64,000 nucleotides of DNA from Oscillospiraceae bacterium (lineage in GTDB: Bacteria; Bacillota; Clostridia; Oscillospirales; Acutalibacteraceae): positions 992 through 64,991 of the forward strand of contig CADBQU010000032.1 of NCBI GenBank assembly GCA_902796905.1. The letters are read 5' to 3'. The notes under the pieces are model-generated. The model worked only from the letters and a program-made list of their open reading frames with translations. It searched no databases and was not told where the DNA came from. This document shows positions 1,041-62,652 of this stretch, in pieces. Made by a program: the position numbers and the translations under genes. Position 1 is the first letter of the stretch; the number at the start of each line of letters is the position of its first letter.

Positions 1041-3368
1041 ATGAGTATGAAATGGTTAAGAGCAGTAGCTCATCCGTGTTTGCCCTTAGGCGAAAACCAT
1101 ACCGTTATTTCGAACAGCGAAAAACACCGCAAACTTTCCGGAAATGCCGCAGCCGAATGCGCGGTATTAATTAAAAACGAGCAAAACTTTTTACCGTTAA
1201 AAAATGGTACTAAAGTAGCTCTTTTTGGTAAAGGAACAATAGATTATGTGCCTTACGGAGGCGGCAGCGGTACCGTTAACATTAAAGACTGTGTTAACAT
1301 TTTAAAAGGTTTGAAAGAAAAAGAAAAAGAAGGTAAAATTTTATTATATGCTCCTTTAGTAAATTTCTATATAGAACAAACAAAAGCTCATCCGTTCGAT
1401 TTATATAACGAACAAGTAAGAGAAAGAAAAGAAAATGAAGAATACGGCTTTGAACCCGAAGTACCAAAAGAGCTTATAAAATCGGCCGCAAAAGAATGTA
1501 CCACAGCTATAATTACGCTTTCGCTTATGTCTTTAGAAGAATTCGACCGCCATCCCGAAAAAGGCGACTGGTATTTAAGCACAAACGAAAAAAAATTAAT
1601 AGATGATGTAAGCAAAGAGTTTGAAAATATTATTGTATTGCTTAATATTTGTGCCGTTAGAGATATGCATTTTATAAAAGAAAACGACAAAATAAAATCC
1701 GCTTTAATTCTTTGGCTTAACGGTAACGACGGCGGAACCGCAGCAGCCGATTTATTGGTAGGAGATAAAACTCCATCGGGAAAACTTGCGGATACTGTGG
1801 CATATGATATAACCGATTATCCTTCAAATTTAAACTTTAATAAAAACGGTAAAGAAAGCATCGAACAAATTTACGAAGAAGATATATATGTTGGATACAG
1901 ATATTTCAACACCTTTAAAGACAAACAAAAAAAAGTTTTGTATCCCTTCGGTTTTGGTTTATCTTACAGCAATTTTTCCTATGAAAATACAACTTTTTTA
2001 AAAACCGACAAAGAAATTATTGTAGGCGTTGATGTTAAAAACAACGGACCGTTTAAGGCTAAAGAAATAATTCAAGTTTACTTTAAAGCCCCTAACACCA
2101 AAATTTTATGTCCGTCCGTTCAACTTGTGGACTTTAACAAAACCAAACTTTTAAACGTTAACGAAACCCAAAGATTAACATTAAGATTTAATATTTCCGA
2201 TATGGCGGCTTTTGACGATACCGGCAAAATTAAAAAATCGGCGTTTGTTTTAGACGGCGGCGAATACGAAGTTTTTGTTTCAACAAGCAGCGTAGACCAC
2301 ATACAGTCCTTTAAATTTAATTTAGACGAAACGGTAGTAAAAGAAGTAAACGACGTTTTATATCCCGATACACCGTTTGAGCGTTTATTGGGCAACGGCG
2401 AAAAAGAAAAAGTTGAGACAAAAGAAGTTAAAGAATTTAATCCGGTTTTTGAAGAAATTCCTTTCTCTCGCCCCGAAAAATGCGAAATAGATTTTAGAAA
2501 AGTGGCTTCCGGTAAAGAATCTTTAAACGATTTTATTGCAAAATTAACCAACGAAGAACTTTTGCATCTAACAAAGTGCCAGCCTTTTTCGGGCGTAGGT
2601 TCTACCGGTGCCACAGGAAATTTACCGCAATATTTTATTCCCAATTTTAATATGGCGGATGGTCCTGCCGGAATAAGAATAGAAACGTTTTTTGAAATTG
2701 TAACAACCGCATTCCCTAGTGCCACCGCAATAGCCTGCAGTTTTAACAGGGAGTTGGCGCACGAAATAGGTTCTGCCGCTGCAAAAGAACTTAAAGAAAA
2801 CAATTTAACCGTTTGGTTGGCGCCTGCTTTAAATATCCATCGTCATCCTTTATGCGGCAGAAACTTTGAATATTACAGTGAAGACCCCGTACTTTCCGGA
2901 GAAATAGCTGCAGCTGCAGTTAACGGTATACAGGAAAACGGCGTAAGCGCCACCATAAAACATTTTGCGGCAAACAATTGCGAGACCAACCGCAAAACTT
3001 CCAATTCTGTAATTTCCCAAAGAGCTTTAAGAGAAATTTATTTAAAAGGTTTTGAAATAACCGTTAAAAAATCCAATCCATATTGTATTATGACCAGTTA
3101 CAATAAACTTAACGGTGTATATCCTTCTGAAAATTATGATTTATTGGGCCTTATTTTAAGAGAAGAATGGGGATACAAAAATTTGGTTATGACCGACTGG
3201 GTAAATTTTGCCGATTGTGTTAAAGAAGTTAAAGCCGGCAATGACTTAAAAATGCCGGAAAGAGACGATTCTAAAATGTTTGAGGCTTTAAAAGACGGAC
3301 GTCTTAACAGAGGTCACTTAACTGAAGTAGCAAAACACATTTTAAGCACATATTTACTTTTTGAATAA
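1041..3368 (+). CDS. Glycoside hydrolase family 3 (beta-glucosidase-like) with permuted domain order
   Basis: 775 aa, with AAGGAG at 1029-1034. The alpha/beta-sandwich and FnIII-like parts ('PSGKLADT', 'PFGFGLSYSNF') come first. The TIM-barrel motifs ('ADGPAGIR', 'KHFAANNCETNR', nucleophile 'VMTDW') are C-terminal. Confidence 0.85.
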   Translation: MSMKWLRAVAHPCLPLGENHTVISNSEKHRKLSGNAAAECAVLIKNEQNFLPLKNGTKVALFGKGTIDYVPYGGGSGTVNIKDCVNILKGLKEKEKEGKILLYAPLVNFYIEQTKAHPFDLYNEQVRERKENEEYGFEPEVPKELIKSAAKECTTAIITLSLMSLEEFDRHPEKGDWYLSTNEKKLIDDVSKEFENIIVLLNICAVRDMHFIKENDKIKSALILWLNGNDGGTAAADLLVGDKTPSGKLADTVAYDITDYPSNLNFNKNGKESIEQIYEEDIYVGYRYFNTFKDKQKKVLYPFGFGLSYSNFSYENTTFLKTDKEIIVGVDVKNNGPFKAKEIIQVYFKAPNTKILCPSVQLVDFNKTKLLNVNETQRLTLRFNISDMAAFDDTGKIKKSAFVLDGGEYEVFVSTSSVDHIQSFKFNLDETVVKEVNDVLYPDTPFERLLGNGEKEKVETKEVKEFNPVFEEIPFSRPEKCEIDFRKVASGKESLNDFIAKLTNEELLHLTKCQPFSGVGSTGATGNLPQYFIPNFNMADGPAGIRIETFFEIVTTAFPSATAIACSFNRELAHEIGSAAAKELKENNLTVWLAPALNIHRHPLCGRNFEYYSEDPVLSGEIAAAAVNGIQENGVSATIKHFAANNCETNRKTSNSVISQRALREIYLKGFEITVKKSNPYCIMTSYNKLNGVYPSENYDLLGLILREEWGYKNLVMTDWVNFADCVKEVKAGNDLKMPERDDSKMFEALKDGRLNRGHLTEVAKHILSTYLLFE

Positions 3369-3483: not shown

Positions 3484-3702
3484 TTTGAATATAATATTCG
3501 CAGACAAAGCAAAGCCAATGCTTTGCTTTAAAAGGCTTTGCCTTTTGGAACCTCCGTTCCGTCTGCTTTATTGAAATTTCAAAATTATTTTTGCGTTGCA
3601 AAAATACAGCCCACGCTGCTCAAAGCCTATGGCTTTGAATTTTGAATATAATATTCGCAAACAAAGCAAAGCTAAAGCTTTGTTTTAAAAGGCTTTGCCT
3701 TT
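3484..3702. repeat. Cluster of repeat-element copies containing a 62-bp direct duplication (3484-3545 and 3641-3702)
   Basis: 'tttgaatataatattcgcaRacaaagcaaagc..gctttg.tttaaaaggctttgccttt' occurs twice with a few substitutions. Additional hairpins lie between the copies (caaagcc-tat-ggctttg at about 3621-3637). Confidence 0.8.
3500..3566. repeat. Four-way-junction (FWJ) intergenic element, divergent sequence variant
   Basis: Outer stem gcagac/gtctgc encloses three perfect hairpins: aaagcaaagc-caat-gctttgcttt, aaaaggc-ttt-gcctttt and ggaac-ctcc-gttcc. There are no unpaired junction bases. Confidence 0.8.
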
Positions 3703-7559: not shown

Positions 7560-7979
7560 ACCTGAGTTAGTCGGACGGCTGCGGAAAACGGGCTTTAATT
7601 TAAGCCTTGCGTTTTCTGAGGAAAGTCCGAGCATCGTAGGGCGGAATAACGGCTAACGGCCGCCGTGGGCAACCATAGGACGAGTGCAACAGAGATATAC
7701 CGCCGATTTTTTGCCGTAACGATTTTATTTTTTAAAATTCGTTTCGGTTTTTGGTAAGGGTGGAAAGGTGCGGTAAGAGCGCACCGGGCCGATAGGTAAC
7801 TATCGGCTTATGTAAACTCTATTCGATGCAACACCAACCGAAACTATACGCTTGCCCGGCGTGTTTCAAAAGGTGGCTGGAGCGCAGGAGCAATTCTGCG
7901 TCGAGATAGATGGTCGTCTTTAATATAGGAATTTATTTTCTATATTAAAACAGAACTCGGCTTACAGACTGACTCAGGT
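7560..7979 (+). ncRNA. rnpB: RNase P RNA
   Basis: Universal P4 strands 'gaggaaagtccgagc' (7618-7632) and 'acagaactcggcttacag' (7950-7967), with compensatory ccgag/ctcgg. A 13-bp P1 forms between 7560-7572 and 7967-7979. Confidence 0.9.
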
Positions 7980-8099
7980 TTAATAAATATTTTAAATGAT
8001 ATTTAAAATATATTTAAACGTTATATTTTTTATTTTTGTATTATGCGCTTTGGCATTACCGTATTTTGATATATTTTTATAATATTATGGGAGAATATT

Positions 8100-8712: not shown

Positions 8713-8806
8713 GGGCGAAGCCCAAAGCCCGAAGCCTAAAAGGCTTCGGGCTTTAACAAAAGCAAAGCTTTTGTTCCGAAAACCTCTGGTTTTCGGGGCT
8801 TCGCCC
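8713..8806 (-). repeat. FWJ intergenic element, order C-B-A
   Basis: Outer stem gggcgaagcc/ggcttcgccc. Hairpins aaagcccgaagcc-taaaa-ggcttcgggcttt, aacaaaagc-aaa-gcttttgtt and ccgaaaacc-tct-ggttttcgg. Confidence 0.9.
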
Positions 8807-10173: not shown

Positions 10174-10234
10174 TAAAATTCCCCCAAACATAATTACAAC
10201 TTTTTAATTATGGCACTAAAAAAAGCGGTTGTCA

Positions 10235-10346
10235 AGTATTGCAACAAAAGTATTGCAACAAAAGTATTGCAACAAAAGTATTGCAACAAAAGTATAGCAA
10301 TAAAAGTATAGCAATAAAAGTATTGCAATAAAAGTATTGCAACAAA
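10235..10346. repeat. Tandem repeat, 8 x 14 bp (agtattgcaacaaa)
   Basis: Eight head-to-tail units. Units 5-7 carry point variants (agtatagcaataaa x2, agtattgcaataaa). Lies in the divergent promoter region between the antiporter and the GNAT gene. Confidence 0.95.
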
Positions 10347-10621: not shown

Positions 10622-11413
10622 ATGAATTACCTCCGAATTACAAAAGACAATATTGAAAAAGAACATATTTGCTGTGCTATGTCCGGCAAACAAAGCACAG
10701 CAAAAAAAGAATGGCTTAAAAAGCAGTTTGACGAAGGTCTTGTTTTTTACAGAAGCGAAGAACGCGGCAAATGTTTTATTGAATATATTCCCGCAGAAAA
10801 CGCCTGGGTACCCATTAAAGCCAACGGATATATTTACATAAACTGCTTATGGGTTTCGGGTTCTTTAAAAGGAAAAGGTTACTCCAACGATTTACTCGAC
10901 GAATGTATTAAAGACGCTAAAGCCAATGGATATAAAGGGCTGTGCATTTTATCGTCCGAAGGCCGAAAACGCGAATTTTTATCCGACCCTAAATATTTAA
11001 TGCATAAAGGTTTTAAAATTGCCGACACCTCGGATTGCGGAATTATTCTTATGTATTTGCCTTTTAATACGAATACAGCTTTAACCAAAAATGCAAATAC
11101 AAATGCAGATACAAATTTTGATGTGCCTGAATTTAAAGAATGCGCAAAACATCCAAAGGCAGAAAACAACGGATTTGTTTTATACTATACCGACCAATGC
11201 CCGTTTACCTATTACTGGGTGCCAAGGGTACAGCAAACCGCAAAAGAGCATAACATTCCTTTAAAAGTTATACATATTAAAGATAAACAATCCGCTCAAA
11301 ACGTACCGGCGCCCGTTACAACCTATGCATTATTTGAAAACGGAAAATTTATCACACAGGGAATACAATCGGATAAAAAATTTTTGGCTCTTGCAGAAAA
11401 GTGCAAACAATAA
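10622..11413 (+). CDS. GNAT-type N-acetyltransferase with YoaP-like C-terminal domain
   Basis: 263 aa. 'INCLWVSGSLKGKGYSNDLLDECIKDAK' resembles the acetyl-CoA-binding segment. Overall layout is like B. subtilis YoaP. AAGGAG Shine-Dalgarno. Confidence 0.55.
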   Translation: MNYLRITKDNIEKEHICCAMSGKQSTAKKEWLKKQFDEGLVFYRSEERGKCFIEYIPAENAWVPIKANGYIYINCLWVSGSLKGKGYSNDLLDECIKDAKANGYKGLCILSSEGRKREFLSDPKYLMHKGFKIADTSDCGIILMYLPFNTNTALTKNANTNADTNFDVPEFKECAKHPKAENNGFVLYYTDQCPFTYYWVPRVQQTAKEHNIPLKVIHIKDKQSAQNVPAPVTTYALFENGKFITQGIQSDKKFLALAEKCKQ

Positions 11414-11432
11414 TAAAGTAAAAACAAGCAAA

Positions 11433-11524
11433 GGCGGCAAGCCCCCCAAAAAACATTTATGTTTTTTGGGCAAAAGCCAAGGCTTTTGCAAAGCCCGAAT
11501 TTTTCGGGCTTTGGGCTTGCCGCC
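11433..11524 (+). repeat. FWJ intergenic element, order A-B-C
   Basis: Outer stem ggcggcaagccc/gggcttgccgcc. Hairpins cccaaaaaaca..tgttttttggg, caaaagcc-aa-ggcttttg and caaagcccgaa-ttt-ttcgggctttg. Confidence 0.9.
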
Positions 11525-11560
11525 GCAAAACCAAACGCAAAACAAAGGGGAAGCAAAAAA

Positions 11561-12475
11561 ATGAATAATCTTATTCAAATAGAGCATTTAAATAAGCGTT
11601 TCGGCGAAATACAAGCGGTTAACGACCTAAGCTTTAATGTAAAAGAAGGGGAACTGTTTGCCTTTTTGGGCGTAAACGGTGCAGGAAAATCCACCACCAT
11701 AAATATTCTTTGCGGTCAGTTACCCAAAGACAGCGGAACCGTTAATATATGTCAAACAGATTTAGATACCGACACCGGCAATATTAAACGCAATTTAGGC
11801 GTGGTTTTTCAAAACTCCGTATTGGATAAGGATTTATCCGTGCGTGATAATTTGCAAAGCAGAGCGGCTCTTTACGGCATACACGGAAAAAACTTTAAAT
11901 TGCGTTTGGCAGAACTTGCCGAGCTTTTGGACTTTACAAACCTGCTTAAACGTCCGGTAGGTAAGCTTTCCGGCGGACAAAGGCGAAGAATTGATATTGC
12001 CAGAGCTTTACTGCACAAACCTAAAATTTTAGTATTGGACGAGCCCACTACGGGACTTGACCCGCAAACAAGAAATCTTCTTTGGGCAGTGGTAGATAAA
12101 CTGAGACGTGAAGAAAAGCTTACGGTTTTTTTAACCACTCATTATATGGAAGAAGCGGCGGAAGCCGATTATGTAATAATACTCGATCACGGCAAAATTG
12201 CCGCGAAAGGCACGCCCCTTACACTTAAAAACACTTACACAGGAGATTATATTACCGTTTATAACCAAAACGAAACCGAAATTAAAAAGCTGGATATGCC
12301 GTACAAAACCCTAAAAGACGCGTTCCGCGTATCCGTTCCCAATACTGCGGCGGCTACGGATTTAATTTTAAAATTCCCCGAAATATTTAACGATTATGAA
12401 ATTACCAAAGGAAAAATGGATGACGTTTTTCTTGCCGTAACAGGAAAAGGACTAACGGGAGGTATAGAGAATTGA
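11561..12475 (+). CDS. ABC transporter ATP-binding protein (ABC-2 type)
   Basis: Walker A 'GVNGAGKST', signature 'LSGGQRRR', Walker B 'ILVLDEPT'. Start moved to the ATG at 11561, because the track ORF start at 11459 runs through the repeat element. Confidence 0.9.
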   Translation: MNNLIQIEHLNKRFGEIQAVNDLSFNVKEGELFAFLGVNGAGKSTTINILCGQLPKDSGTVNICQTDLDTDTGNIKRNLGVVFQNSVLDKDLSVRDNLQSRAALYGIHGKNFKLRLAELAELLDFTNLLKRPVGKLSGGQRRRIDIARALLHKPKILVLDEPTTGLDPQTRNLLWAVVDKLRREEKLTVFLTTHYMEEAAEADYVIILDHGKIAAKGTPLTLKNTYTGDYITVYNQNETEIKKLDMPYKTLKDAFRVSVPNTAAATDLILKFPEIFNDYEITKGKMDDVFLAVTGKGLTGGIEN

Positions 12476-13387: not shown

Positions 13388-13496
13388 GGGGCGCCAAGCC
13401 CAAATCCCGAAAGCATCTTTCGGGATTTGGCAAAAGCTTTAAAGCTTTTGCGCCGTACAAAGCCTTTTTGGCTTTGTACGGCGAGCTTGGCGCCCC
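13388..13496. repeat. FWJ intergenic element, variant (C-B-C')
   Basis: 12-bp outer stem ggggcgccaagc/gcttggcgcccc. Hairpins ccaaatcccgaaa..tttcgggatttgg, caaaagct-ttaa-agcttttg and cgccgtacaaagcc-ttttt-ggctttgtacggcg. Confidence 0.9.
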
Positions 13497-16407: not shown

Positions 16408-16491
16408 GGGCGGCAGCCCCCAAAAAAAATTGTTTTTGGGGCAAAAGCTTTTAAAGCTTTTGCAAAGCTCAAAGAGCTTTGGGCTGCCGCC
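16408..16491 (+). repeat. FWJ intergenic element, order A-B-C
   Basis: Outer stem gggcggcagcc/ggctgccgcc. Hairpins ccccaaaaa..tttttgggg, caaaagctt-ttaa-agcttttg and caaagctc-aaa-gagctttg. Confidence 0.9.
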
Positions 16492-17949: not shown

Positions 17950-18060
17950 GGCGGCGAGCCTTTTTTAAAAACAAAAATTTTTTTATTTTTGTTTTTAAAA
18001 TAAAATTAAAGCCAAAGCTTTAATTTTACAAAAGCCCTTTGGGCTTTTGGGCTCGCCGCC
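17950..18060 (+). repeat. FWJ intergenic element, order A-B'-C
   Basis: Outer stem ggcggcgagcc/ggctcgccgcc. Hairpins aaaaacaaaaat..atttttgttttt, taaaattaaagcc-aa-ggctttaatttta and caaaagccc-ttt-gggcttttg. Confidence 0.9.
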
Positions 18061-18224: not shown

Positions 18225-19256
18225 ATGAAACCTCTTTATTTTATTTTAACCGTATTTTTAACGCTTATAATGTTGCTTTTGCCGGTAATAGCTTTAAACG
18301 AATATAAAAAGGGAGAAGATATAAGCTTTTCCCTTTCCGAAAACAAAAATTCCATAAAAGTTTTTGTTAAATCATTAAATACCGTTCAAAACGTAGACAA
18401 AAAAAGTTACCTTTTTTCGGCTGTTGCAAACTCTTTAAGTAAAAACGCAAAAGAAGAAGCCGTAACGGCGGTGGCTTTAAGCTTTAAAACTTATATAGAA
18501 TATTTGAAAACCGAATATCCGCAAAGAAATTTTGATATAGATGATTTTGAGCAAAATTATTTGCCAAAAGAAGAGCTTTTAAAAGCCTTAAAAACAAAAT
18601 GGGGAACAAATTACGAAACCGTTAAAAAAACTTTTTTAAACGGTGTGGAAAAAGCTTTAAAATACAGTATTTATTACAACAACAAACCTATAATGGCAAA
18701 GGTTCATAAAATTTCCGGTGGAAAAACCGAAAGCGCAAAAAACATTTTGGGAACCGATATTCCATACCTTGTAAGCGTAGAAAGCGCCGGAGATTTACTT
18801 AACGAAAACTTTGAATCCAAAACAACCGTTCCGGCAGAAGAATTTAAAAATAAACTTAACGGTTTTTTAAATATTAATATTAATTTTACCGAAAACACCC
18901 AAAATTATATTTCTAAAATAAATAAAACCGAATGCGGAACCGTTACGGGAGTAATTGTTACCGGAAAAACCGCAGCAAACGAAAAAGAAAACCAAAACCA
19001 AAGCCAAAAAGATAAAGATACGCCAAAAGAGATAACCAAAGAAATTAAAGGCGAAGAATTTAAAAATATTTTCAATTTAAAAAGCAGTAATTTTACCGTT
19101 GTTTTTAAAAACAACTCTTTTTTAATAACATCTTTCGGAGAGGGCGACTTTTTGGGATTAAGTATTTCGGGCGCAGAATATATGGCAAATTCCGGCAGTA
19201 ATTTTAAAGATATTATAAATTGGTACTATAAAAATACCGAAATTGTAAAAAAATAA
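18225..19256 (+). CDS. SpoIID/LytB-domain protein (stage II sporulation protein D-like)
   Basis: N-terminal TM anchor. 'EEAVTAVALSFKTY' and 'HKISGGKTESAKNILGTDIPYLVSVES' resemble the SpoIID signature (AQAVAARTY / SxGGxTE..PYLxSV). Contains a Q/K/E-rich insert. Confidence 0.65.
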   Translation: MKPLYFILTVFLTLIMLLLPVIALNEYKKGEDISFSLSENKNSIKVFVKSLNTVQNVDKKSYLFSAVANSLSKNAKEEAVTAVALSFKTYIEYLKTEYPQRNFDIDDFEQNYLPKEELLKALKTKWGTNYETVKKTFLNGVEKALKYSIYYNNKPIMAKVHKISGGKTESAKNILGTDIPYLVSVESAGDLLNENFESKTTVPAEEFKNKLNGFLNININFTENTQNYISKINKTECGTVTGVIVTGKTAANEKENQNQSQKDKDTPKEITKEIKGEEFKNIFNLKSSNFTVVFKNNSFLITSFGEGDFLGLSISGAEYMANSGSNFKDIINWYYKNTEIVKK

Positions 19257-19300
19257 AATACAACAGCAAATCAAAGCCGTAAAAGACAATAATTTGCAAT

Positions 19301-19383
19301 ACGGCGAAAACGCCTTTGGCGTTTTAAAGCCTAAAATTTTATTTTAGGCTTTGGTACAAAATTTAAAATTTTGTACCCGCCGC
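19301..19383. repeat. FWJ intergenic element, divergent variant
   Basis: Outer stem cggcg/cgccg. Hairpins aaaacgcc-tttg-gcgtttt, aaagcctaaaat-ttta-ttttaggcttt and ggtacaaaattt-aaa-attttgtacc. Confidence 0.8.
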
Positions 19384-19444: not shown

Positions 19445-19482
19445 GAAATCGGACTCATATAATATCCGATTTCCTTTTTGTT
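19445..19482. terminator. Bidirectional terminator (SpoIID-like gene / MacB-like gene)
   Basis: gaaatcgga / tccgatttc hairpin (19445-19473) with T-runs after it on both strands. Confidence 0.5.
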
Positions 19483-19504
19483 ATTTGCTTTTTTCTAAAA
19501 CTTT

Positions 19505-22306
19505 TTATTCGCTTCTTAATGCTATTACCGGGTCTTTTTTAGCGGCAAGCCTTGCCGGAATAAGCCCTGCTATTACCGTAAGTATTGTACTTAATACTAT
19601 TAGTATAATTGCGCCCTCTGCGGGTAAAACGGCTATATTATTAACTCCCGAAAGATTTTTTATTATTAAGTTTGCCGGAACGGTTAAAAGCAACGAAATA
19701 CCTATTCCTAAAACGCCGGAGAAAAATCCCACAATTGCGGTTTCGGCAATAAACACATTGGAAACATTAAATTTGCTGGCTCCCAAGCTTCGCAATATAC
19801 CGATTTCTTTTGTGCGTTCCAAAACGGAAATATACGTTATAATGCCTATCATTATGCTGGAAACCACCAAAGATATTGAAACAAAGCCTATAAGCAGATA
19901 GGTTATCATATTTATAACCTTATTAACATTGCTGATCATAATTCCTATAAAATCGGTGTATTCAATTTTATATTCTTCTTTTTCTTTACCCTTTAAAGAA
20001 TTGTATTTTGCTATTTCGTCCGTTACTATTTCTCTTGCGTCAAAATCCTTTAAATATAAATTAACGGAACTGGGTTTGTTGTAATCAAATGCGCCTAAGG
20101 TATTAAGGTTTGTTTCGGCGGTTGCATTCATTTGAGTTTTTAAAGATTTTAAATACAGCTCTCTTTCGCTTTCGGAAAGCGCCGCCAAAGTAGCTTTTGT
20201 TTTTTGGGGCAAAATGTTTATAAGTTCTTCGTTAGACATATTGCTTACATCTAAAAATTCCGTACCCGTAAAAACATTTATATTTTTATTTTCTTTTTGT
20301 TGTTTTACTATTTCGCTTTGGTTTTCGGTATTTATTAAAAGCTTTGTTAAATCTTCGGTATAGCCTATTGCCGCAAGCGTATTGCCGGAAGAGGTGTTGT
20401 TGGGCTTTATAATACCTACAACCTTTAAAGCCAAAGCGTTTTTATACTGTTCTTTTATATACTCTTCATCCTGAGATTTATCTACCCAAACATTATTGAC
20501 CTTTTTATAAAGCTTTGAATTGGGAATAATTTTAAAAGACGTGTTTAAAATTTGGCTGTACGTAAATGAGGCTTTTTTGTAATCTTCTTTTTTAACCTCT
20601 TCGCCGTTTTCGATTTTCTTTTTAATTTCGTTAAATTCGTCCCAGTCCTTTAAACCTAAAGTATAAAGCGTTTGGTCGGAAATTTCATTGTCTTTATTAA
20701 CTATAACTGCTATTTCGTCGGCATTTTTAGGAAAACTTCCCGTTACCAGACTGTACTGACTTTCCAAAAGCTCTTGATTGTTAATCATTTCGGTCCAGGT
20801 TTCGGTTGTAACGCCCATACTTGCCCACATAGATTTTGCGCTTGACATCATTTCATTTTTGTTTTCAAGTTCGCTTGGATTTATTTTTAAAATTTTTCCG
20901 CTGTCTTTTTGGCTAAAAACCTGCAGGTTTAAATCGTAACCGTATTTAACGCTGGAAACATTCTCTTTTATGGTATTGCCTTTACTGCTTTCCAAATATT
21001 TTTTAAACTCGTAAAGATTGTTGTTTTTAGTGGTAAGCGTTTGGGTTTTTAAGGTTGTACCCACAAAGCCTTTTTGATGAATTTTATTATCGTTATGGGT
21101 TTCTTTATTTTGCATTTCCTCCATAATTTCTTTAGAAGAACTAAAATCCACCGCATTGCTTTGAATACTTAAAGGATAGCTTGATAAAGTATCGGTTTCA
21201 ACCTTTTCGATATACGCGCTCATACCGTTCGAAAGCGCCAAAATAAGCGCTATGCCTATAATGCCTATGCTTCCGGCAAACGAAGTTAAAAGTGTTCTGC
21301 CCTTTTTGGTTTTTAAATTTTGGAAAGAAAGCTCCAACGCCGTTAAAAAGCCCATAGAAACTTTTTTTGACGCCTTTTTGGAAGCTTTGTTAAAAGCCTT
21401 GGCAAAAGCTTTTGAATATTCTTTGTTTGAATTTTTGTTTGTATTTCCGCTTGCATTTTCGCCGGAATTTCCGCTTGTATTTTCTTTATTTAAATTTTTA
21501 TCGTTCGGAGTATTGCTTTGGTTTTCTTTTATTTCTTTATTTTCTTTATTCTCTTTATTTTCTTTATTTTCTGTTTTTAATTCTTCGGATGTTTTTTCCG
21601 CTGATTCTTCCGCAAAAATTTCTTCATCCGTACAAGGATTGCTGTCGGATTTTATTTCGCCGTCCAAAAGCTCTATAATACGGGTGGAATAATCTTGTGC
21701 CAGTTTTGGGTTATGCGTTACCATTATAACCAATTTATCCTTGGCTATTTCTTTTAAAAGTTCCATTATTTGAACGGAAGTAGCGCTGTCCAAAGCCCCC
21801 GTTGGTTCATCCGCCAACAAAATTTCGGGATTATTAACCAAAGCCCTTGCAATTGCCACGCGCTGCATTTGTCCGCCGGAAAGTTGATTGGGCTTTTTAT
21901 TTTTATGGTCTTTTAATCCTACTTTTTCCAAAGCCTCCAACGCTCTGGCTTTGCGTTCTTTTTTAGAAACACCCGAAATGGTAAGAGCCAGTTCCACGTT
22001 TTTTAAAACGGTGCTTTGAGGAATAAGATTGTAGCTTTGAAAAACAAAGCCTATAAAGCCGTTGCGATAGCTGTCCCAATTGCGGCTTTTATAATATTTG
22101 GTAGACACCCCTTTTATTATAAGGTCGCCTTGGGTATATTTATCCAATCCGCCTATAATATTTAAAAGTGTGGTTTTACCAGAACCCGAAGGGCCCAAAA
22201 CAGAAACAAATTCGTTTTGTCTGAAATTTATATTAACATTTTTTAATGCCGTTTGGGTTAAGGCTTCGGTTTTATAAACTTTTGTTATGTTTTTTAAGCT
22301 TAGCAT
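19505..22306 (-). CDS. MacB/FtsX-type fused ABC transporter (ATPase + permease)
   Basis: N-terminal ATPase: 'GPSGSGKTT', '[15 protein letters not shown]', '[11 protein letters not shown]'. Then an ENK-repeat linker, a large extracytoplasmic domain and a C-terminal FtsX 4-TM module. The second ATG (22306) has better spacing from GAAAGG than the first (22312). Confidence 0.85.
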
Positions 22307-23169: not shown

Positions 23170-23261
23170 GGGCGGCAGCCCCCAAAAACAATCAATTGTT
23201 TTTAGGGGCAAAAGCAAATTTTTTGCTTTTGCAAAGCCCTGCGGGCTTTGGGCTGCCGCCC
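23170..23261 (+). repeat. FWJ intergenic element, order A-B-C (near-consensus copy)
   Basis: 12-bp outer stem gggcggcagccc/gggctgccgccc. Hairpins ccaaaaacaa-tcaa-ttgttttt(a)gg, gcaaaagcaa-atttt-ttgcttttgc and aaagccc-tgc-gggcttt. Confidence 0.95.
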
Positions 23262-23266
23262 TTATT

Positions 23267-24253
23267 TTATTTTGTTATATCCATTGTGGCAAAAGCGTTT
23301 AAAGAACTGTCTGCTCTTTCGCTTTCAAAAGCCGCGGCTACGCCCATCATAGCGGCGTTATCTCCGCAATATTTTAATTCCGGAAAATATATGTTAAATT
23401 CTTTATTTTCCGAAAAACGCTTTCTCAGCTCGCTGTTTGCAGAAACTCCGCCCGCCAACGCAATATCTTTATAACCCAAATTTTTTGCGGCTTTAACCGT
23501 ATTTTTATAAAGAATATCGCAAACCTTATATCTTAATGTGGCCGCCAAAACCGGAATATCGGCTTTTTCGTTTTTTTGCTCCAAATTATGCAAAATATTA
23601 ACGGCTGCGGTTTTAATTCCCGAAAAGGAAAAATCCAATTCGCTGCCGGTAACAACAGGTGTGGGAAGCGGATATTTTTTTAAGTCCGGAACAGTGGCGA
23701 TTCTATCCAAATTAACTCCTCCCGGATAACTCAGTCCCATAGCCCTTGCGCACTTATCAAAACACTCTCCCGCGGCGTCGTCTCTTGTACTTGCAACAAT
23801 ATTAAATTTATTATAGTCTTTTACTTCCGTTATAACGGTATTCCCGCCCGAAACCATAAGGCATAAAAACGGAGGCTTTAAATTTTTGTGGGTTATGTAA
23901 TTTGCGGCTATATGCCCTTTTAAATGATGAACCGGAATAAGAGGAACATTTAAGCTTTGCGCCGCTCCTTTTGCAAAATTTACGCCTACAAGCAAAGCCC
24001 CTATAAGCCCCGGTCGGTTTGTAACGGCTACCGCTTCTATATCGTTTTTTGTTATTCCTGCTTTGTTTACCGCTTCTTCCGCTACGGCGTATATATTTTC
24101 CAAATGCCTTCTTGAGGCTATTTCGGGAACTACTCCGCCGTACAGTTTGTGTTCCTCTATTTGCGTTGCCACAATATTGCTAAGCACGGTTCTTCCGTTT
24201 GTAACGGCTGCCGAGGTTTCGTCGCAACTGGATTCTATAGCTAAAATATTCAA
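23267..24253 (-). CDS. tsaD: tRNA N6-adenosine threonylcarbamoyltransferase TsaD
   Basis: 'ILAIESSCDETSAAV' and 'HHLKGHI' motifs. Start reassigned to the TTG at 24253 (GAAAGAAAGGA upstream), because the track ORF extends spuriously through the repeat to 24337. Confidence 0.93.
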   Translation of the reverse strand: MNILAIESSCDETSAAVTNGRTVLSNIVATQIEEHKLYGGVVPEIASRRHLENIYAVAEEAVNKAGITKNDIEAVAVTNRPGLIGALLVGVNFAKGAAQSLNVPLIPVHHLKGHIAANYITHKNLKPPFLCLMVSGGNTVITEVKDYNKFNIVASTRDDAAGECFDKCARAMGLSYPGGVNLDRIATVPDLKKYPLPTPVVTGSELDFSFSGIKTAAVNILHNLEQKNEKADIPVLAATLRYKVCDILYKNTVKAAKNLGYKDIALAGGVSANSELRKRFSENKEFNIYFPELKYCGDNAAMMGVAAAFESERADSSLNAFATMDITK

Positions 24254-24270
24254 AATAATTCCTTTCTTTC

Positions 24271-24364
24271 GGGCGGCAAGCCCAAAGCCCAAAGGGCTTT
24301 GCAAAAAGCAAAAATTTGCTTTTTGCGCCAAAAACAATAAATTGTTTTTGGCGGCTTGCCGCCC
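24271..24364 (-). repeat. FWJ intergenic element, order C-B-A
   Basis: Outer stem gggcggcaagcc/ggcttgccgccc. Hairpins aaagccc-aaa-gggcttt, gcaaaaagcaaa..tttgctttttgc and gccaaaaacaat-aaa-ttgtttttggc. Confidence 0.9.
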
Positions 24365-25517: not shown

Positions 25518-25628
25518 AAACGCTTTCCCCGTTTTTGTCTTAAGCCTTTATTCAGCTTTTATTTTTGGTTTTTTGTTTTAAAATTTGTTTTAAAATTTTA
25601 AATTTAGAATTTTATTTTACATAAAAAA

Positions 25629-25708
25629 GCCCCAAAGCCCTTTGGGCTTTGGCAAAAGCTTTTTTAAGCTTTTGCGCCAAAACAAAAAGTATTTTTTGTT
25701 TTTGGGGC
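25629..25708 (-). repeat. FWJ intergenic element, order C-B-A, short outer stem
   Basis: Outer stem gcccc/ggggc. Hairpins ccaaagccc-ttt-gggctttgg, caaaagctt-tttt-aagcttttg and ccaaaacaaaaa..tttttgtttttgg. Confidence 0.8.
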
Positions 25709-25798
25709 CTTTATTCCTTTATATTTTTATAATACTATAGTAAAAAAATTTTTTCAATCAAAATTAATACCTATTTTGTATATTTTTATTAAAAAATA

Positions 25799-27236: not shown

Positions 27237-27388
27237 TATTATTGTTTATTAATATTAACTGATAAATTACCCAAGCGTAAAAATTTATTTATTAATTTAA
27301 TAAATTTAAGAAGTAAAAGCAAAACGGATTTTTATTGTTTTTTCAATAATTTTCGTTTTGCTTTTTATTTTTGGTATTGTTTATATTA

Positions 27389-27482
27389 GGGCGAAGCCCA
27401 AAGCCCGAAGCCTAAAAGGCATCGGGCTTTAACAAAAGCAAAGCTTTTGTTCCGAAAAACTTTTGTTTTTCGGGGCTTCGCC
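27389..27482 (-). repeat. FWJ intergenic element, order C-B-A (close relative of the 8713 copy)
   Basis: Outer stem gggcgaagcc/ggcttcgcc. Hairpins aaagcccgaagcc..ggcatcgggcttt, aacaaaagc-aaa-gcttttgtt and ccgaaaaac-tttt-gtttttcgg. Confidence 0.9.
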
Positions 27483-27522
27483 TTATTATATATTAAACTT
27501 TAATTTTAAGCTTTATTTTTAT

Positions 27523-28838: not shown

Positions 28839-28919
28839 GGGCGAAGTCCCCAAAAACCTTCGGTTTTTGGGCAAAGCTTTAGCTTTGCAAAAGGCTTTTA
28901 GCCTTTTGGGGCTTCGCCC
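28839..28919 (+). repeat. FWJ intergenic element, order A-B-C
   Basis: Outer stem gggcgaag/cttcgccc. Hairpins ccaaaaacc-ttc-ggtttttgg, gcaaagct-tt-agctttgc and aaaaggct-ttt-agcctttt. Confidence 0.9.
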
Positions 28920-33614: not shown

Positions 33615-33695
33615 GGCGGCGAAAACGCTTTGGCGTTTTTAAGCCCAAACTGTGGTTTGGGCTTAAAGAACAAAATAAATTTTGTTCTTCGCCGC
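33615..33695. repeat. FWJ intergenic element, divergent variant
   Basis: Outer stem ggcggcgaa/ttcgccgc. Hairpins aaacgc-tttg-gcgttt, ttaagcccaaac-tgtg-gtttgggcttaa and agaacaaaat-aaa-ttttgttct. Confidence 0.85.
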
Positions 33696-35428: not shown

Positions 35429-35530
35429 GCGGCGAAAGCCAAAAACAAAAATTATGATTTTTGTTTTTGAGCAAAAGCAAAGCTTTTGCAAATCAATAAA
35501 TTTAAAAATTTATTGATTTGTTTTCGCCGC
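35429..35530 (+). repeat. FWJ intergenic element, A-B-X (third module replaced)
   Basis: Outer stem gcggcgaaa/tttcgccgc. Hairpins caaaaacaaaaat-tatg-atttttgtttttg and gcaaaagc-aaa-gcttttgc, plus a novel AT hairpin aaatcaataaattt-aaa-aatttattgattt. Confidence 0.85.
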
Positions 35531-35580: not shown

Positions 35581-35790
35581 TTAACCTTTTATATGCTTGT
35601 TAATTTTTTCTACCAAAGCGTCGGCGTCGGTTCCGTGTACGGAGCAAGCCTCTGCAATGCTTTCGCTTCTTGCCGAAGGGCAGCCCAAGCAGTGCATACC
35701 TATTTCAAAGAAAAATTCCGCCGTAGAAGGATCAAAATCCAAAACGTCTCCTATAATGCTGTCTTTTGTAATTTCCATTTTATTTTCCAT
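35581..35790 (-). CDS. DUF1858 / hybrid-cluster-protein-associated redox disulfide domain protein
   Basis: 'IGMHCLGCPSARSESIAEACSVHGTD' motif. Start is at the ATG at 35790 or 35778. The track ORF start at 35901 runs through a repeat copy. Confidence 0.7.
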   Translation of the reverse strand: MENKMEITKDSIIGDVLDFDPSTAEFFFEIGMHCLGCPSARSESIAEACSVHGTDADALVEKINKHIKG

Positions 35791-35842
35791 CCTTTCTAAA
35801 CAATTATATGTACTTTTTGCTTTTTTATTTAATTTATTGTAC

Positions 35843-35932
35843 GGCGGCAGCCCAAAGCCCTTTGGGCTTTGCAAAAGCAAGTTTGCTTTTGCCCAAAACA
35901 AAAATATATTTTTGTTTTGGGGCTTGCCGCCC
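35843..35932 (-). repeat. FWJ intergenic element, order C-B-A
   Basis: Outer stem ggcggcagccc/ggggcttgccgcc (one bulge). Hairpins caaagccc-ttt-gggctttg, caaaagcaa-gt-ttgcttttg and cccaaaacaaaaat..atttttgttttggg. Confidence 0.9.
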
Positions 35933-37539: not shown

Positions 37540-37631
37540 CGAAGCCCAAAGCCCGAATTTTTCGGGCTTTGCAAAAGCAAAAGAATTTGCTTTTGCACAA
37601 AACAAAAATAAATTTTTGTTTTGTGGCTTCG
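37540..37631 (-). repeat. FWJ intergenic element, order C-B-A, inside the pgk-tpiA-gpmI cluster
   Basis: Outer stem cgaagcc/ggcttcg. Hairpins caaagcccgaa-ttt-ttcgggctttg, caaaagcaaa..tttgcttttg and cacaaaacaaaaat..atttttgttttgtg. Confidence 0.9.
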
Positions 37632-39984: not shown

Positions 39985-40079
39985 GGCGAAGAGCCCAAAA
40001 ACAAAATAATTGTTTTTGGGTAAAATTAAAGCCGGGGCTTTAATTTTACAAAAGCCCTTCGGGCTTTGGTCTCTTCGCC
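39985..40079 (+). repeat. FWJ intergenic element, order A-B'-C
   Basis: Outer stem ggcgaagag/ctcttcgcc. Hairpins cccaaaaacaa..ttgtttttggg, taaaattaaagcc-gg-ggctttaatttta and caaaagccc-ttc-gggctttg. Confidence 0.9.
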
Positions 40080-47771: not shown

Positions 47772-47870
47772 GGGCGATACGCCCAGAGCCCAAAGGGCTT
47801 TTGTAAAATTAAAGCCAAGGCTTTAATTTTACCCCAAAAACAAATTTTGTTTTTGGGGGCTTATCGCCCC
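47772..47870 (-). repeat. FWJ intergenic element, order C-B'-A
   Basis: Outer stem gggcgata/tatcgccc. Hairpins gagccc-aaa-gggctt, gtaaaattaaagcc-aa-ggctttaattttac and cccaaaaacaaa-tt-ttgtttttggg. Confidence 0.85.
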
Positions 47871-49524: not shown

Positions 49525-49617
49525 GGCGAAGCCCTCCGAAAACCGTTCGGTTTTCGGAGCAAAGCTTAAAAAATTTTAAGCTTTGCAAAAGGCCTTTGGC
49601 CTTTTGGGGCTTCGCCC
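49525..49617 (+). repeat. FWJ intergenic element, order A-B-C
   Basis: Outer stem ggcgaagccc/gggcttcgcc. Hairpins tccgaaaacc-gtt-cggttttcgga, gcaaagcttaaaa..ttttaagctttgc and aaaaggcc-ttt-ggcctttt. Confidence 0.9.
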
Positions 49618-53284: not shown

Positions 53285-53367
53285 GGCAAAAGCCGCCTAA
53301 AACAAATTTTTTGTTTTAGGTCAAAAGCTTCGCTTTTGCAAAGCCCAAAGGGCTTTGGGCTTTTGCC
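53285..53367 (+). repeat. FWJ element inside the V-ATPase operon (I/K gap), order A-B-C
   Basis: Outer stem ggcaaaagcc/ggcttttgcc. Hairpins taaaacaaa..tttgtttta, caaaagc-ttc-gcttttg and caaagccc-aaa-gggctttg. Confidence 0.9.
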
Positions 53368-53950: not shown

Positions 53951-53997
53951 AAAGCACTTAAAAAACATTTTAAAAAACAAGCGAACATATATGGATT

Positions 53998-54088
53998 TGG
54001 GCCCGCCGAAACAAAACTATTTTTGTTTTGGGCAAAAGCAAAAATGCTTTTGCAAGCCCGAAAATTTTCGAGCTTTGGGCTTAACCGC
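53998..54088 (+). repeat. FWJ element inside the V-ATPase operon (K/F gap), order A-B-C, degenerate outer stem
   Basis: Hairpins gaaacaaaa..ttttgttttgg, gcaaaagca-aaaa-tgcttttgc and aagcccgaaaa-tt-ttcgagcttt. The flanks no longer pair. Confidence 0.7.
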
Positions 54089-54448: not shown

Positions 54449-54457
54449 AAACAAGAA

Positions 54458-54548
54458 CGGCAAAAGATTAAAACAATTTTTTTAAGGCAAAAGTGATTTT
54501 TGCTTTTGTAAAGAACAAAAAGAACAGAAAGACTTTTGTTTTTGCCGT
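54458..54548. repeat. Degenerate FWJ-like element (F/E gap)
   Basis: Outer stem acggcaaaa/ttttgccgt. The B-type hairpin gcaaaagtg..ttgcttttg is recognisable. The other modules are degraded. Confidence 0.5.
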
Positions 54549-54601
54549 ACCAAAATAAACCCGTATCTATATAAACGCTATAGAATTGCAAGGTGAAAAA
54601 T

Positions 54602-58399: not shown

Positions 58400-58486
58400 G
58401 GGCGGCAAGCCCCCAAAAACAAAAATTTGTTTTTGGGGCAAAAGCTTAAGCTTTTGCCAAAGCCTTTAGGCTTTGGGCTTGCCGCC
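58400..58486 (+). repeat. FWJ element inside the V-ATPase operon (B/D gap), order A-B-C
   Basis: Outer stem gggcggcaagcc/ggcttgccgcc. Hairpins ccaaaaacaaa..tttgtttttgg, ggcaaaagctt-aagcttttgcc and aaagcc-ttt-aggcttt. Confidence 0.95.
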
Positions 58487-59175: not shown

Positions 59176-59189
59176 ATTAAATTTGATTT

Positions 59190-59266
59190 GCGGCGAAAAT
59201 AGCCCTTTGGGCTTTGGCAAAAGCAAAAGCTTTTGCCCCAAAACTTTAGTTTTGGATTTTCGCCGC
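59190..59266 (-). repeat. FWJ element after the last V-ATPase gene, order C-B-A
   Basis: Outer stem gcggcgaaaat/attttcgccgc. Hairpins agccc-ttt-gggct, ggcaaaagc-aaa-gcttttgcc and ccaaaac-ttt-agttttgg. Confidence 0.9.
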
Positions 59267-59392
59267 ATTTTAAAATTTGCAATTTTTAAAATTTTAGGTT
59301 TATTTAATATAATTTTTAAAAGAGGAATTTTTTAAAAAATTTTTTAAAGGGTATTAAAACAATATTTTAAAAGGATATAAGGATATATAATT

Positions 59393-59905
59393 ATGATTGA
59401 TAAAATATATGTAATATCGCAAAAAATGATTGATTATTCAAATAAAAATATGCATGATATAAATCATTTTTTAAAGGTTTTCGGATTTGCCCAAATTATA
59501 GCAAAAAATGAAGGCTTAAACAAAGAACAGCTGAATACGCTTTTAATAAGCGCATTGCTGCACGACATAGCGTGTCCGTTATGCCGAGAAAAATACGGAA
59601 ATACAAACGGAGTTTATCAAGAAAAAGAAGGAGAAATTTTAGCAAGAGAATTTTTAAATTCTCCCGATATTAAAAACCTAAGCTTAAAAAAAGAAACCGT
59701 AGAAAGAGCGGTGTTTATTGTGGGGCATCATCATTCGCCTAAAGCTTCAAACGGTTTGGATTTTGATATTTTGCTTGAGGCCGATTTTTTGGTAAATGCA
59801 AATGAAAGCAATTTTAGTTCCGCAGTAATAAAAAACGCCTATAATAATTTATTTAAAACCAAAACCGGAAAAGAACTTTTAAAATCAATGTACAATATTA
59901 ATTAA
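59393..59905 (+). CDS. HD-domain phosphohydrolase
   Basis: 170 aa with 'NHFLKV', 'ALLHDIA' and 'GHHHS' (H...HD...H pattern). Confidence 0.7.
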   Translation: MIDKIYVISQKMIDYSNKNMHDINHFLKVFGFAQIIAKNEGLNKEQLNTLLISALLHDIACPLCREKYGNTNGVYQEKEGEILAREFLNSPDIKNLSLKKETVERAVFIVGHHHSPKASNGLDFDILLEADFLVNANESNFSSAVIKNAYNNLFKTKTGKELLKSMYNIN

Positions 59906-62558: not shown

Positions 62559-62652
62559 GCGGCGGATTAAAAGGCTTTGCCTTTTAAATGCTTGCCAAAG
62601 CTTCTCTTTTGGCAAGCATTGCTTAAAACCTCCGGTTTTAAGTTTCCGCCGC
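62559..62652. repeat. FWJ intergenic element, divergent variant
   Basis: Outer stem gcggcgga/tccgccgc. Hairpins ttaaaaggc-ttt-gccttttaa, atgcttgccaaa..tttggcaagcat and ttaaaacc-tcc-ggttttaa. Confidence 0.85.

Follow-up and report, generated by a model that had tools for sequence, protein, structure and literature searches.

Paired arms change together in a closed three-hairpin repeat of an Acutalibacteraceae genome, supporting conservation of fold over sequence

The 64-kb window analyzed here is the whole stretch of 64,000 nucleotides taken from one contig of a gut bacterium of the family Acutalibacteraceae (order Oscillospirales), whose top PolA relatives are 57% identical. It contains many copies of a short repeat, and the copy at positions 19302 to 19382 raises the question of what is conserved in such an element. 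A preliminary description had proposed that it is the folded form, on the grounds that the outer stems of different copies differ but change on both strands and that whole hairpin modules are replaced by other hairpins. The element reads, in order, ACGGCG; AAAACGCC-ttt-GGCGTTTT; AAAGCCTAAAAT-ttt-ATTTTAGGCTTT; GGTACAAAATT-taa-AATTTTGTACC; and CGCCGC. A closing stem (CGGCG/CGCCG) thus encloses three perfect hairpins of 8, 12, and 11 bp, with zero free bases between them. When folded as single-stranded DNA, the plus strand reached −33.1 kcal/mol (z = −8.7) and the minus strand −33.4 kcal/mol (z = −9.6), and the fold was unmatched by any of 200 shuffles. Based on its fold and its relatives, the element is a copy of a subfamily designated T3 below, with no strand assigned.

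The same plan was found across the host genome, of which the window is a part (1.64 Mb in 53 contigs, 34.5% GC, 97% complete). All 18 copies in the preliminary description folded into an outer stem with three hairpins, at −40 to −85 kcal/mol (RNAfold). With a scanner permissive of G·T pairs and of mismatches in 6-bp stems, most hits in this AT-rich genome were chance hairpins. A stricter scanner was therefore used, requiring perfect hairpins of at least 7 bp and a closing stem of at least 6 bp, with a first-order Markov copy of the genome serving as control. The strict scan returned 38 elements with two hairpins, 220 with three, and none with four or five; a relaxed scan returned 61 with two, 237 with three, and none with four, the five-hairpin count being taken from the strict scan. 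No three-hairpin element was seen in the Markov control under either setting. The family is estimated at about 250 copies, of which at least 237 were recovered by scanning, and these 237 occupy 20,638 nt, or 1.3% of the genome. Elements are 68 to 111 nt long (median, 87), with a median hairpin stem of 9 bp and loops of 3 or 4 nt in 669 of 711 hairpins; 177 of the 237 copies (75%) have at most one unpaired junction base. The closing stem is GC-rich, usually starts with GGCG or GCGG, and encloses exactly three abutting hairpins. Its arms form inverted repeats of 5 to 13 bp, the ends reading GGCG.../...CGCC, and the commonest 5′ outer arm is GGCGGCAAGCCC. Either DNA strand, or either transcript, is predicted to fold into a hairpin-capped four-way junction. 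Regardless of the strand read, the hairpins' 5′ arms contain little T (A, 49%; C, 29%; G, 13%; T, 9% over the 237 elements), so that A:T pairs far exceed T:A pairs.

To assess covariation, a model-based alignment of 34 distinct copies of the T1 subfamily was assembled from the window and other contigs, and its 37 pairs were scored on five measures against 500 shuffles. The four helices of the T1 covariance model were supplied by hand; an RNAalifold consensus on a MAFFT alignment recovered only two of the four. Standard pairs made up 98.3% of cells, compared to 83.9 ± 0.6% in shuffles, and changes on both sides were seen in 30 of the 37 pairs, compared to 13.2. Double-sided cells numbered 151 (28.7 ± 4.8 in shuffles), and one-sided cells numbered 7. 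The observed values on the five measures were reached by none of the 500 shuffles. When the 3′ partner was slid by 1 to 3 columns, the covariation score fell from 0.383 to 0.055 or less. In the closing stem, all 11 pairs vary on both sides. Because a model-based alignment is biased toward its own model, the arm test was repeated on copies found by sequence alone. Among 158 full-length copies recovered with nhmmer, the longest perfect helix between outer arms averaged 9.5 within a copy and 6.1 between copies. The preliminary description had named an absence of supported covariation as the result that would speak against it; both the 34-copy alignment and the nhmmer arm test gave the opposite result. 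Its observation on the outer stems was also confirmed, as all nine named variants (cag/ctg, caag/cttg, gaag/cttc, gag/ctc, aaaag/ctttt, gaagag/ctcttc, gata/tatc, gcagac/gtctgc, and gcgccaagc/gcttggcgc) were present at the positions given, each with the complementary change on the other arm.

Perfect stems could simply mean that the copies are young. The T1 copies showed a median nearest-neighbor identity of 84.7% and an all-pairs mean of 70%, with no pair at 95% or more, and a recent burst was rejected on this basis. Nearest-neighbor substitution classes were set aside because sequence alignment shifts register in stems of variable length. Contigs of other metagenomes whose flanking proteins are identical or 97% identical served as strains; they are 97.5 to 100% identical to the window. 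All nine element sites covered by these contigs are occupied (16408, 17950, 19301, 23170, 24271, 49525, 53285, 53993, and 59189), and five of the nine lie in strains 97.5 to 98.3% identical. Between the window and the latter strains, elements differed by 4.58%, other intergenic DNA by 4.75%, and coding sequence by 1.48%. Were all of these changes to remain unpaired, even so short a divergence would by itself disrupt several per cent of pairs; standing non-standard pairs are about 1.7% in the 34-copy alignment and 0.5% in the scanner set. Between two strains, hairpin A of the 17950 copy goes from A5-C-A5/T5-G-T5 to A4-C-A4/T4-G-T4, with matched insertions or deletions (indels) in both arms, and in the outer stem of the 53993 copy a G:C pair becomes A:T. 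Given that old copies drifting at the rate of intergenic DNA nonetheless keep stems that are about 98% Watson-Crick, pairing is restored in place and not merely left over from a recent burst.

At least six sequence subfamilies are built on this one plan. The labels T1 to T6 are our own and are based on clustering and on the listing of elements. T1 (114 copies in its cluster) has the closing stem GGCGGCAAGCC and the modules CCAAAAACAA, CAAAAGC, and CAAAGCCC. T2 (closing stem GCGGCGGTT; modules TTAAAAGGC, CGCCAAAAGC, and TTAGGCAAACC) and T3 (closing stem GCGGCG; modules AAAACGCC, AAAGCCAAAAC, and GGGACAAAAT) share a cluster of 65 copies. T4 (10 copies) closes with GGGGCGAAGCCC around CCAAAAACC, GCAAAGC, and AAAAGGC; T5 (11 copies) closes with GCGCCAAA around CCAAAAC, CAAAAGCC, and GGCAAAGC; and T6 (8 copies) closes with GGCGGCG around a variable hairpin, CAAAGCC, and CCGCAAAC. 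About 29 elements fall outside these five clusters. Genome-wide, T1 was matched 150 times by the covariance model and 175 times by nhmmer.

This grouping changes how the replaced modules are to be understood. The replacements are perfect hairpins, as had been described, but most are not unrelated sequence. The copies at 19301 and 33615 belong to T3, whose hairpin AAAACGCC occurs 18 times in the genome, and those at 62559 and 3500 carry modules of T2 type, with the AAAAGGC hairpin that typifies this subfamily and is found 66 times. Among the replacement copies listed, that at 35429 alone is a T1-like copy with a private third hairpin. A module swap was seen in at least four T1 copies, where the TAAAATTAAAGC hairpin stands in place of module B. 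Within a single T1 module, AAA and TTT loops are each common and mixed intermediates are rare, a pattern suggestive of the loop inverting as one block.

The distribution of the elements was then surveyed in other genomes. The T1 model had no match in 18 genomes of the same genus or in 22 others, and in 400 genomes of the family it gave weak matches in two. No three-hairpin element was found in two same-genus genomes, G017 (400 kb) and G006 (251 kb); as G006 has a GC content of 34%, the elements are not a composition effect. G044, from another genus (193 kb), had none by scan and one copy by model. Across 80 loci of relatives (1.39 Mb), one GC-rich element was found, at 1940 to 2048 of locus L071. 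It consists of GCGGCGGGAC, three hairpins, and GTCCCGCCGC, in a locus of 57% GC from a metagenome-assembled genome of Ruminococcaceae (RUG13829). In contrast to the empty genomes, G097, a 1.1-Mb genome of another genus of which 400 kb was sampled, contained 14 three-hairpin elements and none with four. Several G097 copies share the closing stem GGGCGCAGCCCC; their hairpins, although always perfectly paired, are quite different from one another and from those of the present genome. The plan therefore recurs without the sequence. G097 also carries four decayed IS200-like Y1 fragments with stops and frameshifts (L158, which is G097:C16, at 2783 to 3089 and 11647 to 11832; L159 at 2057 to 2284), and no three-hairpin elements flank them. 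Together, the covariation, the age and substitution rate of the copies, and the recurrence of the architecture in G097 support the central interpretation of the preliminary description, that the fold is kept rather than the sequence.

The placement of the elements is not random. Midpoints lie outside called open reading frames (ORFs) in 211 of 237 cases. Tandem gaps hold 150 copies, convergent gaps 38, and divergent gaps 15, corresponding to 0.97, 1.28, and 0.31 per kb, and the upstream stop lies a median of about 35 nt away, the next start about 70 nt. In tandem gaps, the A-B-C order of T1 modules lies on the transcribed strand in 86 of 116 cases (74%). For genes that run head-on to the replication direction inferred from GC skew, T1 orientation follows transcription in 9 of 12, so that a replication-driven orientation is unsupported in this small sample. 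Downstream of oriented T1 copies, the flank is rich in A (50 to 68% A and 18 to 30% T at positions +8 to +16) and no T-run or U-tract follows the element; intrinsic (Rho-independent) termination was ruled out for this reason. The element at 19302 to 19382 itself lies in a convergent gap between spoIID (plus strand, stop at 19256), assigned from PF08486 relatives, and a 935-amino-acid ORF (minus strand, stop at 19505). At about 19447 to 19485, the sequence contains a hairpin flanked on both sides by T-runs that looks like a two-way terminator; our terminator scan omitted it because its loop is longer than the scan permits. If this hairpin is such a terminator, the element would form part of the spoIID 3′ untranslated region (UTR).

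Whether the elements act as DNA or as RNA was approached through wobble pairs and strand symmetry. Non-Watson-Crick pairs occupy 33 of 6,795 hairpin stem positions, and with the transcribed strand as reference, G·T and A·C are equally frequent among them (14 each). RNAfold structures contain 84 G·U pairs when the A-B-C strand is folded and 65 when its complement is (P = 0.14), and the mean fold energies of the two strands are −53.2 and −52.6 kcal/mol. Selection on RNA would be expected to leave many G·U intermediates, and these on the transcribed strand only; such a signature was not found among the 7 one-sided and 151 double-sided cells. Stems restricted to Watson-Crick pairs do not in turn prove a DNA form, since arm copying yields such stems whatever the function. 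On these data, the selected form may be either DNA or RNA.

Overall, the elements are best filed as a strictly four-way-junction variant of repetitive extragenic palindrome (REP)-like sequences, without a RAYT transposase. The explanation that we favor, and to which we give an even chance of being correct, is that of a REP-like, structure-constrained extragenic "palindrome of palindromes" shaped by arm-to-arm template switching together with selection for the junction shape. The mutational engine would be the copying of one arm from the other during replication, by template switching in quasi-palindromes, such that one event would either revert a mismatch or convert it into a double change. 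Template switching has been documented as producing and repairing perfect stems in one event (PMC8794818; PMC7202029), and perfect hairpins can be both created and maintained by it (PMC8794818). Here such switching is suggested by the scarcity of one-sided G·T intermediates, the lack of strand bias, the occurrence of AAA and TTT loops within each module, and the matched indels in two strains. Of the three readings offered in the preliminary description (an RNA four-way junction, a DNA cruciform, and templating of one arm by the other), the last is thus favored as the source of perfect pairing. Selection for the junction itself would be the second force, because a constant number of three stem-enclosed hairpins, never four, is beyond what arm copying by itself can explain. 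The weakest step concerns the role, which may resemble that of REPs and bacterial interspersed mosaic elements (BIMEs): the elements could serve as a very stable 3′ or intercistronic transcript structure, or as a DNA site for a junction-binding protein. Such a role would be expected from their placement after stops, in operons, and in convergent gaps, from their rarity in divergent gaps, and from the 74% orientation of T1. The copies would once have multiplied, and the genome shows nothing that looks capable of moving them at present.

Several observations weigh against this explanation. The model-based alignment leans toward the structure fitted to it, a weakness from which the nhmmer-based arm test is free. 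The strain comparison is small (502 element sites with 23 differences), and several of the differences are uncompensated (16408, 23204, and 54062): fresh unpaired changes stand at 23204 and 54062 in the window strain only, and the 16408 hairpin is shortened between strains. The closing-stem arms lie about 70 nt apart, a distance over which template switching is less well documented than across a loop of 3 to 4 nt. The scarcity of G·T pairs fits arm copying at any level of selection and by itself is no proof of function at the DNA level, and the 74:26 orientation bias along transcription points to some RNA-level or transcription-coupled effect. Finally, no protein partner or mobilizing enzyme was found, and that the junction is recognized is something we infer.

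In one alternative, the elements are structured RNAs, that is, four-way junctions in 3′ UTRs or between cistrons that are selected as RNA, for instance as a block to 3′-to-5′ exonucleases or as a processing or insulating signal, with the palindromy of the DNA a mere consequence. The folds are very stable, they lie a short distance past stops and within operons such as that of the V-ATPase, they are depleted between divergent genes, and T1 follows transcription both overall (86:30) and at head-on genes (9:3), which implicates transcription and not replication. The T3 copy at 19302 would itself fall in a 3′ UTR, between the spoIID stop and the hairpin with T-runs at 19447 to 19485. We nevertheless consider selection at the RNA level unlikely. 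G·U pairs make up about 0.6% of cells, with no excess on the transcribed or A-B-C strand; one-sided changes are far outnumbered by double-sided ones; the two strands fold equally well; and 26% of T1 copies point the other way. An A-rich flank follows the element in place of a U-tract. No Rfam family reached its gathering score over the elements: across the window, Rfam 15 gave RNase P as its sole match, and the best sub-threshold hits over elements were at chance level (E values of 0.2 to 0.8). Absence from two same-genus genomes would also be unusual for a needed regulatory RNA. A second alternative dispenses with selection, holding that old, dead repeats look perfect through template-switch mutation alone and that the shape is a functionless by-product. 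Perfect stems are known to arise by template switching, the elements differ between strains at the rate of other intergenic DNA, and decaying, truncated, and internally deleted copies exist. Mutation alone, however, would not be expected to give a hairpin count of exactly three, with no case of four, across 237 elements, the same plan with different sequences in another genus, some 250 copies kept in a compact 1.64-Mb genome, or non-random placement and orientation, and we regard this alternative as distinctly improbable.

That the elements are instead an active or recent non-autonomous transposon, a MITE (miniature inverted-repeat transposable element) or a REPIN moved by a transposase in trans, with stems that are perfect because the copies are young, appears very improbable. 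Such a transposon would account for a high-copy, extragenic, lineage-restricted family whose closing-stem arms form terminal inverted repeats and whose subfamilies coexist, as REPIN groups do (PMC3116915). The divergence of the T1 copies (no pair at 95% identity or more; median nearest neighbor, 85%) argues against it, as does the lack of presence/absence polymorphism between strains over nine compared sites, of which five lie in strains 97.5 to 98.3% identical. No target-site duplication was seen, as the flanks of 87 oriented T1 copies contained no direct repeat and showed a weak TA...TA preference that extends the stem. The genome contained no Y1/RAYT gene (Y1_Tnp, PF01797), although control genomes gave matches, and RAYT/REP membership was rejected on this ground; TnpB and reverse transcriptase genes and multi-copy ORFs were likewise absent from the assembly, which at 97% completeness could be missing one gene. 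A parent insertion sequence was not found, there being no multi-copy ORF and no pair at 95% identity or more, in a search that did not take the DDE transposase families individually. Genes lying between two elements were considered as mobilizer candidates and were uninformative, the elements being too dense. T1 was also unmatched in phage, plasmid, and JGI metagenome collections, and an origin from a phage, a plasmid, or another metagenome organism was set aside accordingly.

Among known repeats, the Correia/NEMIS, ERIC, and pneumococcal BOX elements are intergenic sequences of about 100 to 150 nt with inverted ends and stable folds, often cotranscribed with their neighbors, and BOX elements are modular (boxA, boxB, and boxC). 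A description of a closed three-hairpin repeat was not found in the literature searched; the nearest were the REP and REPIN elements. Like the REP, BIME, and REPIN elements of Proteobacteria, which are mobilized by RAYT/Y1, the present elements are high-copy (220 to 237, above the 100 copies used as a test), extragenic, and palindromic, lie mostly after genes and within operons, and form several sequence groups in one genome. Compensatory changes, seen here on both sides of 30 of 37 pairs, are common in the hairpins of REPINs, for which a "clover" fold has been discussed (PMC3116915). The two differ in that a REP is a single imperfect palindrome of 20 to 40 bp or an inverted doublet of one, whereas the present elements are a closed stem with three hairpins and a median length of 87 nt. 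The 5′ end of a REP carries a conserved GTAG or CGTC tag (PMC3733652), in place of which the ends here read GGCG/CGCC. The host, a Firmicute of the class Clostridia, lacks RAYT or any Y1 transposase, and its copies are far more diverged from one another.

Bacterial MITEs share the terminal inverted repeats, here the closing-stem arms of 5 to 13 bp. Unlike MITEs, the present elements show no target-site duplication, no parent insertion sequence that we could find, and no near-identical copies, and instead of a long imperfect hairpin they form a strict four-way junction that leaves hardly any base unpaired. A further comparison, made by features and not by sequence, is with organellar elements such as double-hairpin elements, the repetitive hairpin-forming elements of sponge mitochondria (PMC2800124), and the palindromic repeats of algal and fungal mitochondria. 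These too are short, intergenic, and defined by hairpins, with families that differ in sequence, and they are regarded as selfish and mobile although no enzyme is known for them; in contrast, they are organellar and have one or two hairpins, with no closing stem or fixed number of three. Quasi-palindrome template switching (PMC8794818; PMC7202029) matches the pattern of change seen here, in that one arm is copied onto the other to give perfect stems and multibase "compensatory" changes in one event. It is, however, a mutation mechanism and not a family of elements, and it leaves the copy number, the three-hairpin plan, and the placement after genes unexplained.

More tentatively, and as a proposition that we think doubtful though possible, the family may be one lineage of a wide and undescribed class of structure-defined elements. 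In such a class, a folded strand mimicking a Holliday junction with four perfect helices would have its shape read by a junction-specific factor, would recur with unrelated sequences in several bacterial groups (here, the present genome, G097, and L071), and would have its pairing renewed by arm copying. A class of this kind would amount to a heritable nucleic acid shape with freely drifting sequence. The family offers a clean natural case of shape without sequence, its copies almost never showing the wobble intermediates that stepwise compensatory evolution would be expected to leave. In it, the long-standing question of the upkeep of perfect stems, by selection of paired mutations or by one-step template switching, can be tested in real populations. 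It also extends REP-like biology to gut Clostridia that lack RAYT, and poses the question of what reads a capped four-way junction and why it has three hairpins and not four.

The remaining copies in the window illustrate the variation within the plan. Plus-strand T1 copies lie at 11433 to 11524 (closing stem GGCGGCAAGCC; A, CCAAAAAACA; B, CAAAAGC; C, CAAAGCCCGAA), at 16409 to 16491, where hairpin A is shorter than in the orthologous copy of strain contig L156, and at 17950 to 18060, which has a long hairpin A and the variant B module TAAAATTAAAGC and whose hairpin A arms show the matched indels relative to contig L155. Further plus-strand T1 copies are found at 23170 to 23261, with an unpaired A at 23204 in the window strain where contig L148 has a pairing G; at 35429 to 35530, with the private third hairpin AAATCAATAAATT; and at 39985 to 40079, with a variant B module and the closing stem GGCGAAGAGCC. 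On the minus strand, T1 copies lie at 24271 to 24364 (in the gap between tsaD and a rimI-fusion gene), 25625 to 25712 (weak closing stem), 35843 to 35931, 37540 to 37631, 47773 to 47868 (variant B module; closing stem GGGCGATA.GCC, with one mismatch), and 59189 to 59267 (closing stem GCGGCGAAAAT). Two T1-like minus-strand copies are close relatives, that at 8713 to 8806 (closing stem GGGCGAAGCCC; A-B-C order on the minus strand) and that at 27382 to 27490, which has a long hairpin with one mismatch. A long minus-strand copy at 13388 to 13496 closes with GGGGCGCCAAGC around hairpins of 14, 8, and 14 bp. No strand was assigned to the short copy at 3500 to 3566 (closing stem GCAGAC/GTCTGC; hairpins of 10, 7, and 5 bp; AAAAGGC module), the second T3 copy in the window at 33616 to 33695, the T4 copy at 28839 to 28919 (GGGCGAAG.CC, CCAAAAACC, GCAAAGC, and AAAAGGCT), the T4-type copy at 49525 to 49616 (closing stem GGCGAAGCC), or the T2-type copy at 62559 to 62652 (GCGGCGGA, TTAAAAGGC, ATGCTTGCCAAA, and CTTAAAACC).

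The V-ATPase operon holds several copies. The plus-strand T1 copy at 53285 to 53367, in the I/K gap, is present in every strain contig that covers the site, and that at 58401 to 58486 (plus strand), in the B/D gap, is the top match to the model at 101 bits. In the K/F gap, a degenerate plus-strand T1 copy at 53993 to 54086 shows, in contig L143, the double change from G:C to A:T in its outer stem. In strain L142 this copy has a 40-nt internal deletion that ends at short T-runs and removes module B and parts of A and C. Another degenerate copy lies in the F/E gap at 54456 to 54560 (closing stem ACGGCAAAA/TTTTTGCCGT), where contigs L143 and L144 carry a 9-nt insertion, AAAGAACAG.

The repeats also have practical consequences for assembly and annotation. 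Contigs L152, L153, and L154, which are independent short-read assemblies, terminate within the T3 element of the finding, at window position 19331 or 19354; the repeats thus break metagenome assemblies. Longest-ORF calls cross elements at 11330 to 11587, 23267 to 24337, and 35581 to 35901, giving false ORFs or false N-terminal extensions of genes. At least one element stands next to the breakpoint of an interstrain rearrangement. In strains about 97.8% identical (L155:2400-2450 and L156), the spoIID stop is followed by a 34-nt hairpin and then by the reverse complement of window positions 59902 to 58435, an inversion or rearrangement (window 19257 to 19300 and 59902) whose left breakpoint directly adjoins the T3 element. 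The SpoIID homologue encoded at 18225 to 19256 has, among 5.8 billion proteins searched, zero relatives between 97% and 39% identity, and the species is on a long, isolated branch.

Elsewhere in the window, the RNase P RNA at 7563 to 7980 is of bacterial class A (255.8 bits), and a tandem array of about nine copies of the 14-nt unit AAGTATTGCAACAA occupies 10206 to 10345, upstream of an ORF at 10622. Between about 47000 and 48000, GC skew changes from negative to positive and gene orientation from mostly minus to mostly plus, which looks like a switch of the replication-origin type.

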